Below, piece after piece: positions 3,476 to 46,256 of a stretch of DNA of 64,000 nucleotides (its first letter is position 1; each line of letters opens with the position of its first letter). The position numbers were made by a program, and so were the translations under genes. Source of the stretch: Escherichia coli (GTDB lineage Bacteria; Pseudomonadota; Gammaproteobacteria; Enterobacterales; Enterobacteriaceae); assembly GCF_003018255.1 (NCBI RefSeq), contig NZ_CP027440.1. One strand, 5' to 3'. The notes beneath the pieces were generated by a model, which did no database searches, had not been told where the DNA came from, and saw only the letters and a list, made by a program, of their open reading frames with translations.

Positions 3476-4539
3476 GTGGTCAAGGGAAGCGATTAATGGT
3501 GATGGCAGGCGGAACCGGTGGACATGTATTCCCGGGACTGGCGGTTGCGCACCATCTAATGGCTCAGGGTTGGCAAGTTCGCTGGCTGGGGACTGCCGAC
3601 CGTATGGAAGCGGACTTAGTGCCAAAACATGGCATCGAAATTGATTTCATTCGTATCTCTGGTCTGCGTGGAAAAGGTATAAAAGCACTGATAGCTGCCC
3701 CGCTGCGTATCTTCAACGCCTGGCGTCAGGCGCGGGCGATTATGAAAGCGTACAAACCTGACGTGGTGCTCGGTATGGGCGGCTACGTATCAGGTCCAGG
3801 TGGTCTGGCCGCGTGGTCGTTAGGTATTCCGGTTGTGCTTCATGAACAAAACGGTATTGCGGGATTAACCAATAAATGGCTGGCGAAGATTGCCACCAAA
3901 GTGATGCAGGCGTTTCCAGGCGCTTTCCCTAATGCGGAAGTGGTGGGTAACCCGGTGCGTACCGATGTGCTGGCGCTGCCGTTGCCGCAGCAACGTTTGG
4001 CTGGACGTGAAGGTCCGGTTCGTGTGTTGGTAGTGGGTGGTTCCCAGGGCGCACGCATTCTTAACCAGACAATGCCGCAGGTTGCTGCGAAACTGGGTGA
4101 TTCAGTCACTATCTGGCATCAGAGCGGTAAAGGTTCGCAACAATCCGTTGAACAGGCGTATGCCGAAGCGGGGCAACCGCAGCATAAAGTGACGGAATTT
4201 ATTGATGATATGGCGGCGGCGTATGCGTGGGCGGATGTCGTCGTTTGCCGCTCCGGTGCGTTAACGGTGAGTGAAATCGCCGCGGCAGGACTACCGGCGT
4301 TGTTTGTGCCGTTTCAACATAAAGACCGCCAGCAATACTGGAATGCGCTACCGCTGGAAAAAGCGGGCGCAGCCAAAATTATCGAGCAGCCACAGCTTAG
4401 CGTGGATGCTGTCGCCAACACCCTGGCCGGGTGGTCGCGAGAAACCTTATTAACCATGGCAGAACGCGCCCGCGCCGCATCCATTCCGGATGCCACCGAG
4501 CGAGTGGCAAATGAAGTGAGCCGGGCTGCCCGGGCGTAA
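3472..4539 (+). CDS. murG: UDP-GlcNAc:lipid I N-acetylglucosaminyltransferase MurG
   Basis: 355 aa, [27 protein letters not shown]-terminus; 4-bp overlap with ftsW. Confidence 0.96.
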
Positions 4540-7813: not shown

Positions 7814-9072
7814 TTAAGGCGACGGACAGAAAACTGGTAGTAGGACTGGAGATTGGTACCGCGAAGGTTGCCGCTTTAGTAGGGGAAGTTCTGCCCGACG
7901 GTATGGTCAATATCATTGGCGTGGGCAGCTGCCCGTCGCGTGGTATGGATAAAGGCGGGGTGAACGACCTCGAATCCGTGGTCAAGTGCGTACAGCGCGC
8001 CATTGACCAGGCAGAATTGATGGCAGATTGTCAGATCTCTTCGGTATATCTGGCGCTTTCTGGTAAGCACATCAGCTGCCAGAATGAAATTGGTATGGTG
8101 CCTATTTCTGAAGAAGAAGTGACGCAAGAAGATGTGGAAAACGTTGTCCATACCGCGAAATCGGTGCGTGTGCGCGATGAACACCGTGTGCTGCATGTGA
8201 TCCCGCAAGAGTATGCGATTGACTATCAGGAAGGGATCAAGAATCCGGTAGGACTTTCGGGCGTGCGGATGCAGGCAAAAGTGCACCTGATCACATGTCA
8301 CAACGATATGGCGAAAAACATCGTCAAAGCGGTTGAACGTTGTGGGCTGAAAGTTGACCAACTGATATTTGCCGGACTGGCATCAAGTTATTCGGTATTG
8401 ACGGAAGATGAACGTGAACTGGGTGTCTGCGTCGTCGATATCGGTGGTGGTACAATGGATATCGCCGTTTATACCGGTGGGGCATTGCGCCACACTAAGG
8501 TAATTCCTTATGCTGGCAATGTCGTGACCAGTGATATCGCTTACGCCTTTGGCACGCCGCCAAGCGACGCCGAAGCGATTAAAGTTCGCCACGGTTGTGC
8601 GCTGGGTTCCATCGTTGGAAAAGATGAGAGCGTGGAAGTGCCGAGCGTAGGCGGTCGTCCGCCGCGGAGTCTGCAACGTCAGACCCTGGCAGAGGTGATC
8701 GAGCCGCGCTATACCGAGCTGCTCAACCTGGTCAACGAAGAGATATTGCAGTTGCAGGAAAAGCTTCGCCAACAAGGGGTTAAACATCACCTGGCGGCAG
8801 GCATTGTATTAACCGGTGGCGCAGCGCAGATTGAAGGTCTTGCAGCCTGTGCTCAGCGCGTGTTTCATACGCAGGTGCGTATCGGCGCGCCGCTGAACAT
8901 TACCGGTTTAACGGATTATGCTCAGGAGCCGTATTATTCGACGGCGGTGGGATTGCTTCATTACGGGAAAGAGTCACATCTTAACGGTGAAGCTGAAGTA
9001 GAAAAACGTGTTACAGCATCAGTTGGCTCGTGGATCAAGCGACTCAATAGTTGGCTGCGAAAAGAGTTTTAA
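7810..9072 (+). CDS. ftsA: Cell division protein FtsA (actin-like ATPase)
   Basis: 420 aa, [35 protein letters not shown] motif; 4-bp overlap with ftsQ. Confidence 0.96.
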
Positions 9073-9132
9073 TTTTTATGAGGCCGACAATGATTACGGT
9101 CTCAGGCGACAGGCACAAATCGGAGAGAAACT

Positions 9133-10284
9133 ATGTTTGAACCAATGGAACTTACCAATGACGCGGTGATTAAAGTCATCGGCGTCGGCGGCGGCGGCGG
9201 TAATGCTGTTGAACACATGGTGCGCGAGCGCATTGAAGGTGTTGAATTCTTCGCGGTAAATACCGATGCACAAGCGCTGCGTAAAACAGCGGTTGGACAG
9301 ACGATTCAAATCGGTAGCGGTATCACCAAAGGACTGGGAGCTGGCGCTAATCCAGAAGTTGGCCGCAATGCGGCTGATGAGGATCGCGATGCACTGCGTG
9401 CGGCGCTGGAAGGTGCAGACATGGTCTTTATTGCTGCGGGTATGGGTGGTGGTACCGGTACAGGCGCAGCTCCAGTCGTCGCTGAAGTGGCAAAAGATTT
9501 GGGTATCCTGACCGTTGCTGTCGTCACTAAGCCCTTCAACTTTGAAGGCAAGAAGCGTATGGCATTCGCGGAGCAGGGGATCACTGAACTGTCCAAGCAT
9601 GTGGACTCTCTGATCACTATCCCGAACGACAAACTGCTGAAAGTTCTGGGCCGCGGTATCTCCCTGCTGGATGCGTTTGGCGCAGCGAACGACGTACTCA
9701 AAGGCGCTGTGCAAGGTATCGCCGAACTGATTACTCGTCCGGGTTTGATGAACGTGGACTTTGCAGACGTACGCACCGTAATGTCTGAAATGGGCTACGC
9801 AATGATGGGTTCTGGTGTGGCGAGCGGTGAAGATCGTGCGGAAGAAGCTGCTGAAATGGCTATCTCTTCTCCGCTGCTGGAAGATATCGACCTGTCTGGC
9901 GCACGCGGCGTACTGGTAAACATCACAGCGGGCTTCGACCTGCGTCTGGATGAGTTCGAAACGGTAGGTAACACCATCCGTGCATTTGCTTCCGACAACG
10001 CGACTGTGGTTATCGGTACTTCTCTTGACCCGGATATGAATGACGAGCTGCGCGTAACTGTTGTTGCGACAGGTATCGGCATGGACAAACGTCCTGAAAT
10101 CACTCTGGTGACCAATAAGCAGGTTCAGCAGCCAGTGATGGATCGCTACCAGCAGCACGGGATGGCTCCGCTGACCCAGGAGCAGAAGCCGGTTGCTAAA
10201 GTCGTGAATGACAATGCGCCGCAAACTGCGAAAGAGCCGGATTATCTGGATATCCCAGCATTCCTGCGTAAGCAAGCTGATTAA
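9133..10284 (+). CDS. ftsZ: Cell division GTPase FtsZ
   Basis: 383 aa, tubulin signature [10 protein letters not shown] and [13 protein letters not shown]. Confidence 0.98.
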
Positions 10285-12106: not shown

Positions 12107-14812
12107 ATGCTAATCAAATTATTAACTAAAGTTTTCGGTAGTCGTAACGATCGCACCCTGCGCCGGATGCGCAAAGTGGTCAACATCATCAATGCCATGG
12201 AACCGGAGATGGAAAAACTCTCCGACGAAGAACTGAAAGGGAAAACCGCAGAGTTTCGTGCACGTCTGGAAAAAGGCGAAGTGCTGGAAAATCTGATCCC
12301 GGAAGCTTTCGCCGTGGTGCGTGAGGCAAGTAAGCGCGTCTTTGGTATGCGTCACTTCGACGTTCAGTTACTCGGCGGTATGGTTCTTAACGAACGCTGC
12401 ATCGCCGAAATGCGTACCGGTGAAGGTAAAACCCTGACCGCAACGCTGCCTGCTTACCTGAACGCACTAACCGGTAAAGGCGTGCACGTAGTTACCGTCA
12501 ACGACTACCTGGCGCAACGTGACGCCGAAAACAACCGTCCGCTGTTTGAATTTCTTGGCCTGACAGTTGGTATCAACCTGCCGGGCATGCCAGCACCGGC
12601 AAAGCGTGAAGCTTACGCAGCTGACATTACTTACGGTACGAACAACGAATACGGCTTTGACTACCTGCGCGACAACATGGCGTTCAGTCCTGAAGAACGT
12701 GTACAGCGTAAACTGCACTATGCGCTGGTGGACGAAGTGGACTCCATCCTGATCGATGAAGCGCGTACACCGCTGATCATTTCCGGCCCGGCAGAAGACA
12801 GCTCGGAAATGTATAAACGCGTGAATAAAATTATTCCACACCTGATCCGTCAGGAAAAAGAAGACTCCGAAACCTTCCAGGGCGAAGGCCACTTCTCGGT
12901 GGATGAAAAATCTCGCCAGGTGAACCTGACCGAACGTGGTCTGGTTCTGATTGAAGAACTGCTGGTTAAAGAAGGCATCATGGATGAAGGTGAGTCTCTG
13001 TACTCTCCGGCCAACATCATGCTGATGCACCACGTAACGGCGGCGCTGCGCGCTCATGCGCTGTTTACCCGCGACGTCGACTACATCGTTAAAGATGGTG
13101 AAGTTATCATCGTTGACGAACACACCGGTCGTACCATGCAGGGCCGTCGCTGGTCCGATGGTCTGCACCAGGCTGTGGAAGCGAAAGAAGGTGTGCAGAT
13201 CCAGAACGAAAACCAAACGCTGGCTTCGATCACCTTCCAGAACTACTTCCGTCTGTATGAAAAACTGGCGGGGATGACTGGTACTGCTGATACCGAAGCT
13301 TTCGAATTCAGCTCCATCTATAAGCTGGATACTGTCGTTGTTCCGACCAACCGTCCAATGATTCGTAAAGATCTGCCGGACCTGGTCTACATGACTGAAG
13401 CGGAAAAAATTCAGGCGATCATTGAAGATATCAAAGAACGCACTGCGAAAGGCCAGCCGGTGCTGGTGGGTACAATCTCCATCGAAAAATCGGAGCTGGT
13501 GTCAAATGAACTGACCAAAGCCGGTATTAAGCACAACGTCCTGAACGCCAAATTCCATGCCAACGAAGCGGCGATTGTTGCTCAGGCAGGTTACCCGGCT
13601 GCGGTGACTATCGCGACCAACATGGCGGGTCGTGGTACCGATATTGTGCTCGGTGGTAGCTGGCAGGCAGAAGTTGCCGCGCTGGAAAATCCGACTGCAG
13701 AGCAAATTGAAAAAATTAAAGCCGACTGGCAGGTACGTCACGATGCGGTACTGGCAGCAGGTGGCCTGCATATCATCGGTACTGAACGTCACGAATCCCG
13801 TCGTATCGATAACCAGCTGCGCGGTCGTTCTGGTCGTCAGGGGGATGCTGGTTCTTCCCGTTTCTACCTGTCGATGGAAGATGCGCTGATGCGTATTTTT
13901 GCTTCCGACCGAGTATCCGGCATGATGCGTAAACTGGGTATGAAGCCAGGCGAAGCCATTGAGCACCCGTGGGTGACCAAAGCGATTGCCAACGCCCAGC
14001 GTAAAGTTGAAAGCCGTAACTTCGACATTCGTAAGCAACTGCTGGAATATGATGACGTGGCTAACGATCAGCGTCGCGCCATTTACTCCCAGCGTAACGA
14101 ACTGCTGGATGTCAGCGATGTGAGCGAAACCATCAACAGCATTCGTGAAGATGTGTTCAAAGCGACCATTGATGCCTACATTCCGCCACAGTCGCTGGAA
14201 GAAATGTGGGATATTCCGGGGCTGCAGGAACGTCTGAAGAACGATTTCGACCTCGATTTGCCAATTGCCGAGTGGCTGGATAAAGAACCAGAACTGCATG
14301 AAGAGACGCTGCGTGAGCGCATTCTGGCGCAGTCCATCGAAGTGTATCAGCGTAAAGAAGAAGTGGTTGGTGCTGAGATGATGCGTCACTTCGAGAAAGG
14401 CGTCATGCTGCAAACGCTTGACTCTCTGTGGAAAGAGCACCTGGCTGCGATGGACTATCTGCGTCAGGGTATCCACCTGCGTGGCTATGCACAGAAAGAT
14501 CCGAAGCAGGAATACAAACGTGAATCGTTCTCCATGTTTGCAGCGATGCTGGAGTCGTTAAAATATGAAGTTATCAGCACGCTGAGCAAAGTTCAGGTAC
14601 GTATGCCTGAAGAGGTTGAGGAGCTGGAACAACAGCGTCGTATGGAAGCCGAGCGTTTAGCGCAAATGCAGCAGCTTAGCCATCAGGATGACGACTCTGC
14701 TGCCGCAGCTGCACTGGCGGCGCAAACCGGTGAACGCAAAGTAGGACGTAACGATCCTTGCCCGTGTGGTTCTGGTAAAAAATATAAGCAGTGCCATGGC
14801 CGCCTGCAATAA
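12107..14812 (+). CDS. secA: Preprotein translocase ATPase SecA
   Basis: 901 aa, [26 protein letters not shown]-terminal zinc-binding [14 protein letters not shown]. Confidence 0.98.
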
Positions 14813-14833
14813 AAGCTAACAGTTGAAGTAAAA

Positions 14834-14858
14834 GGCGCAGGATTCTGCGCCTTTTTTA
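14834..14858 (+). terminator. Rho-independent terminator after secA
   Basis: GGCGCAG-gatt-CTGCGCC hairpin followed by TTTTTT. Confidence 0.7.
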
Positions 14859-15274: not shown

Positions 15275-15470
15275 TTATGCCGCATCCAACATTTGCACAA
15301 GATGCCCGATGCGACGCTGGCGCGTCTTATCAGTATCTACAATTTTAACATGTTGATATGTAAGGTCTTGTAGGTCGGATAAGGCGTTCCCGCCGCATCC
15401 GACATTTGCACACGATGCCTGATGCGACGCTGCCCGCGTCTTATCAGGCCAGCGTCGCATCAGATAAAAT
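15275..15470. repeat. REP/BIME cluster (repetitive extragenic palindromes)
   Basis: Repeated GCCTGATGCGACGCTG..CGCGTCTTATCAGGCC and TAGGTCGGATAAGGCGTTCCCGCCGCATCCGAC units between mutT and yacG. Confidence 0.8.
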
Positions 15471-44087: not shown

Positions 44088-44192
44088 GGGTTGATACCTC
44101 CTTTGTTAACACCCGTAAAAAAAGGGCGCAACATAATAGCTAACATTGACCGCGGATGCACGGTCAATATTTCTACAAAAAGGTATCAGGGA

Positions 44193-44540
44193 TTATTTGA
44201 CGTAGGCAAGCAGGCTTAAGGAGTCGCGAGCCAGGGCTTTGCACTTTTTAGCGACGGGAATGCCAATGCCGCTGAGATCGCGGTAGCTGTCTTCACCGAG
44301 GGCTTTCATGTCGAAGGTGTCGTAATTACTGAGATCCCACTGGTTTTGCTGGGCAAAAAAGACCAGTGCGCGACGAATTTGCCCGTTAGGTAAGTTCTGG
44401 TAACCACAATCGTTCTTCAGAAAAACAAAAACTGCCGTTAAATCGGCCATATCTTCGGCTTCAGACTCGCTGAGCGCGTAACTGTTTGCGCAGACGGCCA
44501 TCAGGCTGCCGAATAACACTGTTCTGAAAAACGTCTTCAT
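44193..44540 (-). CDS. yacC: YacC, PulS/OutS-like periplasmic protein
   Basis: Start taken at MKTFFRTVLFGSLMAVCANSYA (signal peptide; 115 aa); ORF track extends to 44711. Confidence 0.85.
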   Translation of the reverse strand: MKTFFRTVLFGSLMAVCANSYALSESEAEDMADLTAVFVFLKNDCGYQNLPNGQIRRALVFFAQQNQWDLSNYDTFDMKALGEDSYRDLSGIGIPVAKKCKALARDSLSLLAYVK

Positions 44541-44629
44541 TGCTTCTACCAGGGGCTTAAAGAAGATAAACGTTAGCACACTGCGAGCGAGGCGACGACC
44601 ATTATTGTCGATTAAATTGTGTCTGCGGC

Positions 44630-44660
44630 TTGACCTTCCCGTAAGGGGAAGGACTATGCT
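44630..44660 (+). promoter_or_regulatory. cueO promoter with CueR (MerR-family) operator
   Basis: TTGACC (-35) then inverted repeat CCTTCCC-gtaa-GGGGAAGG then TATGCT (-10) with 19-bp spacer, ~45 nt upstream of cueO start. Confidence 0.8.
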
Positions 44661-44705
44661 CAACGTTTGATTTTGTTTCGCCTGCTTAAGAATAAGGAAA
44701 TAACT

Positions 44706-46256
44706 ATGCAACGTCGTGATTTCTTAAAATATTCCGTCGCGCTGGGCGTGGCTTCGGCTTTGCCGCTGTGGAGCCGCGCAGTATTTGCGGCGGAACGCCC
44801 AACGTTACCGATCCCTGATTTGCTCACGACCGATGCCCGTAATCGCATTCAGTTAACTATTGGCGCAGGCCAGTCCACCTTTGGCGAGAAAACCGCAACT
44901 ACCTGGGGCTATAACGGCAATCTGCTGGGGCCGGCGGTGAAATTACAGCGCGGCAAAGCGGTAACGGTTGATATCTATAACCAACTGACGGAAGAGACGA
45001 CGTTGCACTGGCACGGGCTGGAAGTACCGGGTGAAGTCGACGGCGGCCCGCAGGGAATTATTCCGCCAGGTGGCAAGCGCTCGGTGACGTTGAACGTTGA
45101 TCAACCTGCCGCTACCTGCTGGTTCCATCCACATCAACATGGCAAGACCGGGCGACAGGTGGCGATGGGGCTGGCTGGTCTGGTGGTGATTGAAGATGAC
45201 GAGATCCTGAAATTAATGCTGCCAAAACAGTGGGGTATCGATGATGTTCCGGTGATCGTTCAGGATAAGAAATTTAGCGCTGACGGGCAGATTGATTATC
45301 AACTGGATGTGATGACCGCCGCTGTGGGTTGGTTTGGCGATACGTTGCTGACCAACGGTGTAATCTACCCGCAACACGCTGCCCCGCGTGGCTGGCTGCG
45401 CCTGCGTTTGCTCAATGGCTGTAATGCCCGCTCGCTCAATTTCGCCACCAGCGACAATCGCCCGCTTTATGTGATTGCCAGCGACGGCGGTCTGCTACCT
45501 GAACCGGTGAAGGTGAACGAGCTGCCAGTGCTGATGGGCGAGCGTTTTGAAGTGCTGGTGGAGGTTAACGACAACAAACCCTTTGACCTGGTGACGCTGC
45601 CGGTCAGCCAGATGGGGATGGCGATTGCGCCGTTTGACAAGCCGCATCCGGTAATGCGGATTCAGCCGATTGCCATTAGTGCCTCTGGTGCTTTGCCAGA
45701 CACATTAAGTAGCCTGCCTGCGTTCCCTTCGCTGGAAGGGCTGACGGTACGCAAGCTGCAACTTTCTATGGACCCAATGCTCGATATGATGGGGATGCAG
45801 ATGCTGATGGAGAAATATGGCGATCAGGCGATGGCCGGGATGGATCACAGCCAGATGATGGGGCATATGGGGCATGGCAATATGAATCATATGAACCACG
45901 GCGGGAAGTTCGATTTCCACCATGCCAATAAAATCAACGGTCAGGCGTTTGATATGAACAAGCCGATGTTTGCGGCGGCGAAAGGGCAATACGAACGTTG
46001 GGTTATCTCTGGCGTGGGCGACATGATGCTGCATCCGTTCCATATCCACGGTACGCAGTTCCGTATCTTGTCAGAAAATGGCAAACCGCCAGCGACGCAT
46101 CGCGCAGGCTGGAAAGATACCGTTAAGGTAGAAGGTAATGTCAGCGAAGTGCTGGTGAAGTTTAATCACGATGCACCGAAAGAACATGCTTATATGGCGC
46201 ACTGCCATTTGCTGGAGCATGAAGATACGGGGATGATGTTAGGGTTTACGGTATAA
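44706..46256 (+). CDS. cueO: Multicopper oxidase CueO (Tat-exported)
   Basis: Start taken at [28 protein letters not shown] (twin-arginine signal), HWHG and HCHLLEHED copper sites, Met-rich insert. Confidence 0.96.

Follow-up and report, generated by a model that had tools for sequence, protein, structure and literature searches.

A known CueR operator in the overlong spacer of the Escherichia coli cueO promoter, recovered from raw sequence

The 31-bp site at positions 44630-44660 (+ strand) of the analysed Escherichia coli DNA, a stretch of 64,000 nucleotides referred to below as the window, is almost certainly the sigma-70 promoter of cueO, with an operator for the copper sensor CueR built into the spacer between the -35 and -10 hexamers. 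The exact string, TTGACCTTCCCGTAAGGGGAAGGACTATGCT, was located at these positions, and all of its 31 bases are equal to those of the cueO (yacK) promoter PcueO in E. coli K-12 MG1655 (NC_000913.3, 137007-137037). In the flanks that were compared, from the start of yacC through the start of cueO, no base differs between K-12 and the window. The CueR operator at cueO is an already known element and has no novel aspect. What is said below on CueR binding, on activation and on the distortion of the DNA comes from published work on K-12, where the sequence is the same. An earlier, sequence-only reading of this DNA had proposed a CueR operator in the cueO promoter at this place, and the proposal is borne out by the match to the CueR core, by the identity to K-12, by the CueO equivalog encoded downstream and by the published status of this promoter as a CueR target. 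The same reading had recommended the site as a positive control for the recognition of regulatory elements, and this use is appropriate for a known element identical to that of K-12.

The promoter can be read hexamer by hexamer. The -35 hexamer TTGACC (44630-44635, +) agrees with TTGACA at five of six positions, and the -10 hexamer TATGCT (44655-44660, +) agrees with TATAAT at four of six, the A at position 2 and the T at position 6 being present. Both hexamers had been named before and were found as described. The 19 bp formerly reported between them were also counted here (44636-44654, +), which is 2 bp above the sigma-70 optimum. The operator dyad, CCTTCCCGTAAGGGGAAGG (44634-44652, without strand), is an exact match to the core CCTTCC-N7-GGAAGG. 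It was resolved by the inverted-repeat finder into two perfect 7-nt arms, CCTTCCC (44634-44640) and GGGAAGG (44646-44652), with a 5-nt gap, GTAAG, between them; this description is equivalent to the CCTTCC-N7-GGAAGG of the literature. The inverted repeat had therefore been recognised as a real feature, but its former parse as CCTTCCC-GTAA-GGGGAAGG has unequal arms (7-4-8) and gives way to the 7+7 arrangement. It had furthermore been placed after the -35 hexamer, which needs correction: the dyad sits inside the promoter and shares 2 bp with the hexamer, whose final CC also forms the first two bases of the dyad. Coordinates and alignment put it in the same register as in the copA promoter, PcopA. 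Downstream, a transcription start zone at 44665-44670 (+), 5-10 nt past the -10 hexamer, is predicted from the promoter geometry. With a start at about 44665-44670, we infer that the cueO mRNA has a 5' leader of about 40 nt. A Shine-Dalgarno-like AAGGA (44694-44698, +) lies 7 nt ahead of the cueO ATG, and in this region a TAAGGA block is conserved in E. albertii, Citrobacter and Rahnella.

The window offers no second promoter of the ordinary kind at this place. With a spacer of 17 or 18 nt, the -10 hexamer read from the window sequence would be ACTATG or CTATGC. Neither has the conserved A in its second place or the conserved T in its sixth, so only the 19-nt spacing yields a usable -10. A standard sigma-70 scan of 44100-44900 with spacers of 16-18 nt returned zero promoters. 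Given this result and the unusable shifted hexamers, the overlong-spacer arrangement is the only promoter-like one upstream of cueO.

The gene downstream is a copper-homeostasis gene. The start of the site is 76 nt from the ATG of cueO (44706-46256, +), which follows directly on the same strand and encodes 516 amino acids plus a stop. The product is a multicopper oxidase (NCBIfam NF008205 equivalog, 980.5 bits against a cutoff of 525) whose N-terminus begins with an RR motif. On the other side, the divergent neighbour yacC (44193-44540, -), encoding a YacC family pilotin-like lipoprotein (NF037975), forms the left boundary of the regulatory region. The gene order speD, speE, yacC (all -), cueO (+), gcd (-) is common to the window and K-12 MG1655, and in the matching genomes the RefSeq annotation likewise has cueO downstream of the site and yacC under the same match. 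The regulator gene cueR is outside the 64-kb window; in K-12 it is about 377 kb away. Of 5426 complete E. coli genomes, 5424 carry it, and it is very likely present in the source genome as well.

Within E. coli the site is nearly invariant. Of the 5426 complete genomes, 5415 match the 31-mer, and in 5414 the identity is 99% or more. An 801-bp query that takes in the surroundings of the site matches 5424 of the 5426, with an identity of only 95-99% in 4740 records. With the 31-mer near-invariant and the surrounding 801 bp variable, the site is evidently kept more tightly than its flanks. About ten of the 5426 genomes gave no match to the 31-mer. The one variant inspected, in strain BS15R-A (NZ_CP063349.1, 2100070-2100100), has TATACT for TATGCT in the -10 and an intact dyad; TATACT is one step nearer to the -10 consensus. 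Among plasmid-labelled records, ten places match the yacC-cueO region and three match the 31-mer. These may be chromosomal segments on plasmids, or mislabelled assembly records.

For the comparison across species, one genome per species was scanned in 100,044 species with the pattern TTGACCTTCC-N7-GGAAGG, which gave at least 120 loci with at least 124 sites. Loci ascertained by a pattern have its 16 specified bases invariant by construction, and independent evidence is found only in the unspecified positions, the 19-bp register of the -10 and the identities of the downstream genes. As regards the genes, the first same-strand homolog within 750 nt downstream is of CopA, CueO or CueR/MerR type in 83 of the 124 sites listed; these 83, among the matches listed, divide into 53 CopA-type ATPases, 21 MerR-family or CueR-like regulators and 9 CueO-type oxidases. 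As regards the register, TAnnnT stands at exactly 19 bp in 59 of the 124 sites listed and at 15-18 or 20 bp in none of them (0/124), and an A occupies -10 position 2 in 118 of the 124 sites listed. The conserved unspecified positions include the C after CCTTCC, the AGG before GGAAGG and the A..CT of the -10.

The box also lies ahead of cueO orthologs in five other Enterobacterales, with protein identities of 97% in E. albertii, 81% in Citrobacter werkmanii, 64% in Yersinia artesiana, 62% in Pantoea sp. IMH and 63% in Rahnella bruchi. When the cueO intergenic regions are aligned, the operator is the sole long conserved block, the flanks being unalignable in distant genera, and every aligned Enterobacterales cueO promoter has A at -10 position 2 and ends the hexamer with CT. 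Among the matches listed there are also loci from metagenome-assembled Firmicutes genomes (Faecalibacterium, Lachnospiraceae, Oscillospiraceae and Clostridiales) in which the TTGACCTTCC-N7-GGAAGG box lies 50-120 nt ahead of a MerR-family gene, usually with a good TAnnnT -10 at 19 bp (loci L005, L011, L017, L020, L033, L044, L046, L050, L061, L070, L080, L082, L094, L099 and L121). The 'CueR' tblastn matches in these Firmicutes reflect similarity to the MerR family in general and do not establish CueR orthology. It appears that the CueR-like half-site is used by seemingly autoregulated MerR-family genes far beyond the Proteobacteria.

The literature describes this promoter in the same terms. 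CueR is a MerR-family Cu(I) sensor whose apo form also binds promoters and represses them, and whose holo form activates (PMC5329002). Both copA and cueO are under its control (PMC8169799; PMC5329002). Cryo-EM of the CueR activation complex revealed bending of the 19-bp spacer, the core CCTTCC-N7-GGAAGG, a repeat that overlaps the -35, and CueR and RNA polymerase on opposite faces of the DNA (PMC8169799). By comparative genomics, cueO was assigned to the CueR regulon in E. coli, Salmonella and Yersinia, and the 19-bp requirement was described (PMC1526738). A PcueO-lacZ fusion, activated by Mn and not by Ni, has served as a reporter of CueR activity, with Cu treatment named only in a figure legend; in the same work, deletion of PcopA and PcueO abolished the in-cell CueR-promoter FRET signal (PMC9396075). 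In our literature text search, the copA site string was matched in three papers and the cueO site string in none. The primary papers cited by these sources are those of Outten et al. 2000, Stoyanov et al. 2001 and Yamamoto and Ishihama 2005.

A very improbable alternative is that the dyad is the operator of another MerR-family regulator, for example a ZntR-, SoxR-, HmrR- or GolS-like one, and not of CueR. The operators of ZntR and SoxR have half-sites unlike CueR's, and GolS is, to our knowledge, a Salmonella protein absent from E. coli. The architecture as such would admit other members of the family, as a dyad in a 19-20-bp spacer is common to all MerR-family promoters (PMC1526738; PMC8113463), and the box also stands, among the matches listed, ahead of the Firmicutes MerR-family genes described above. 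The half-sites speak for CueR, however, because CCTTCC/GGAAGG is the published CueR core (PMC8169799) and recurs in PcopA. The signal of HmrR is almost identical to that of CueR, but HmrR is treated as the CueR ortholog, hence no separate E. coli protein is implied (PMC1526738). The presence of cueR in 5424 of 5426 E. coli genomes and the loss of the CueR-promoter FRET signal when PcopA and PcueO are deleted (PMC9396075) point the same way.

That the palindrome and hexamers came together by chance and regulate nothing, cueO being transcribed from elsewhere, is harder still to accept. The inverted repeat is short, with 7-nt arms, and matches to the core with two mismatches occur in the window at chance frequency (3 found, 1.76 expected). 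The exact core, however, has one occurrence in the 64-kb window and was matched in 0 of 100 dinucleotide-preserving shuffles; with one mismatch or less, 0.08 matches are expected in the window. Chance would also have to account for a site near-invariant in 5414 of 5426 E. coli genomes between variable flanks, for a box kept ahead of cueO in five other Enterobacterales with its 19-bp register, for the lack of any other sigma-70-like promoter in 44100-44900, and for the naming of PcueO as a CueR target in the literature (PMC5329002; PMC8169799; PMC9396075).

Weaker matches to the core lie elsewhere in the window. One, at 3923-3941 (+), CTTTCCCTAATGCGGAAGT, has two mismatches and falls inside the chance expectation. 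Another, at 45721-45739 (+) within cueO, CGTTCCCTTCGCTGGAAGG, has one mismatch (expectation 0.08) and was considered as an internal CueR site and rejected. First, the hexamers in register with it would be CCTGCG and TGACGG, neither of which is a -35 or a -10. Second, the match arises only through a strain-specific codon: compared with K-12, the window strain has one Leu-to-Phe codon within cueO (TTA to TTC, 45723-45725), and K-12 and E. albertii, which carry TTA at the equivalent place, have two mismatches to the CueR core. Third, the match is not conserved in other genera. We judge it to be a chance match.

That the inverted repeat works as a hairpin in RNA or DNA, for instance as an intrinsic terminator or a stabiliser of mRNA, and not as a protein site, deserves next to no credence: its G+C-rich 7-bp stem and 5-nt loop could fold if transcribed, but no T-run follows the repeat on either strand, a terminator scan was empty there, and the repeat lies between divergent genes and upstream of the predicted start, so that the yacC and cueO transcripts should both be without it. 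An Rfam scan covering the entire window gave no RNA family match at the site or in its vicinity. Away from the site, four matches reached the gathering score, at 9052-9141 (+), 14788-14857 (+), 15373-15450 (+) and 30621-30734 (-), to PssrA (104.9 bits), STnc40, naRNA4 and tp2. PssrA is described as a plasmid-encoded Shigella sRNA, and is found here in DNA that is apparently chromosomal.

With the site read as the CueR-controlled cueO promoter, the mechanism known from K-12 would operate as follows. A CueR dimer would bind CCTTCC-N7-GGAAGG (44634-44652) on the DNA face opposite RNA polymerase. The 19-bp spacing would leave TTGACC and TATGCT too distant and out of phase, which would make the promoter weak alone, and apo-CueR would hold it repressed. 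Binding of Cu(I), or also of Ag(I) or Au(I), to CueR would then bend and undertwist the spacer and thereby realign the hexamers for the sigma-70 holoenzyme. Transcription would be expected to start about 7 nt past the -10, and the mRNA, with its leader of some 40 nt, would direct synthesis of CueO, a periplasmic multicopper oxidase that oxidises Cu(I) to the less toxic Cu(II).

The divergent neighbour calls for a separate comment. The yacC-cueO pairing is kept in five of five other Enterobacterales examined. A block at 44568-44579, AAACGTTAGCAC (minus strand GTGCTAACGTTT), is conserved from E. coli to Citrobacter and partly in Pantoea and Rahnella. The minus-strand sequence of 44570-44578, TGCTAACGT, is similar to an extended -10 and lies about 30 nt upstream of the yacC ATG and about 55 bp from the dyad; judged by its sequence, it is a candidate yacC promoter. 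Proximity and conserved synteny would be consistent with an influence of the CueR operator on yacC as well, although we consider this very improbable. If it were true, the copper regulon would gain a third, so far unrecognised member in YacC, a pilotin-like lipoprotein that is uncharacterised.

The value of the cueO site is that of a calibration point, since it demonstrates that a textbook MerR-type operator in an overlong spacer can be read from raw sequence. The tools recover the known site with strong statistical, population and cross-species support, and knowledge of copper homeostasis is left unchanged.

Among known promoters other than PcueO itself, the closest comparison is with PcopA of K-12, the CueR operator used in the cited cryo-EM work (PMC8169799). 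The sequence-only reading had suggested this comparison. The K-12 copA promoter, TTGACCTTCCCCTTGCTGGAAGGTTTAACCT, is in the same register and has 22 of 31 bases identical to the window site in the alignment. The two promoters share the -35 hexamer TTGACC, the half-sites CCTTCC/GGAAGG, the 2-bp overlap with the -35, the 19-bp spacer, and the T, the A and the final CT of the -10. The mismatches cluster in the middle 7 bp of the dyad, which read CCTTGCT in PcopA and CGTAAGG in the window site, and the -10 is TAACCT in the former and TATGCT in the latter. They also differ in the gene controlled, which is a Cu(I) P-type ATPase in the case of PcopA, whereas the window site precedes a periplasmic oxidase.

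In their half-sites and their 19-bp spacer, the HmrR/ActP-type copper promoters of alpha- and beta-proteobacteria agree with the window site. HmrR is regarded as the CueR ortholog of other proteobacteria, with an almost identical signal, but the extended consensus differs, ACCTTCCAG-(3)-CTGGAAGG against ACCTTCCC-(5)-TGGAAGGT (PMC1526738). Many sites in the species scan are upstream of copA/actP-like ATPases of this type among the matches listed, and, among the same matches, the regulator is often in the same operon, downstream of the ATPase, which distinguishes these loci from the present one. Other MerR-family promoters, such as those of MerR, ZntR, SoxR and BmrR, differ in their half-site sequences from those of CueR, and the effectors of their regulators are Hg(II), Zn(II), redox signals or drugs. 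What they have in common with the window site is the dyad operator in an overlong spacer of 19-20 bp and activation by DNA distortion, an architecture described for the MerR family as a whole (PMC1526738; PMC8113463).
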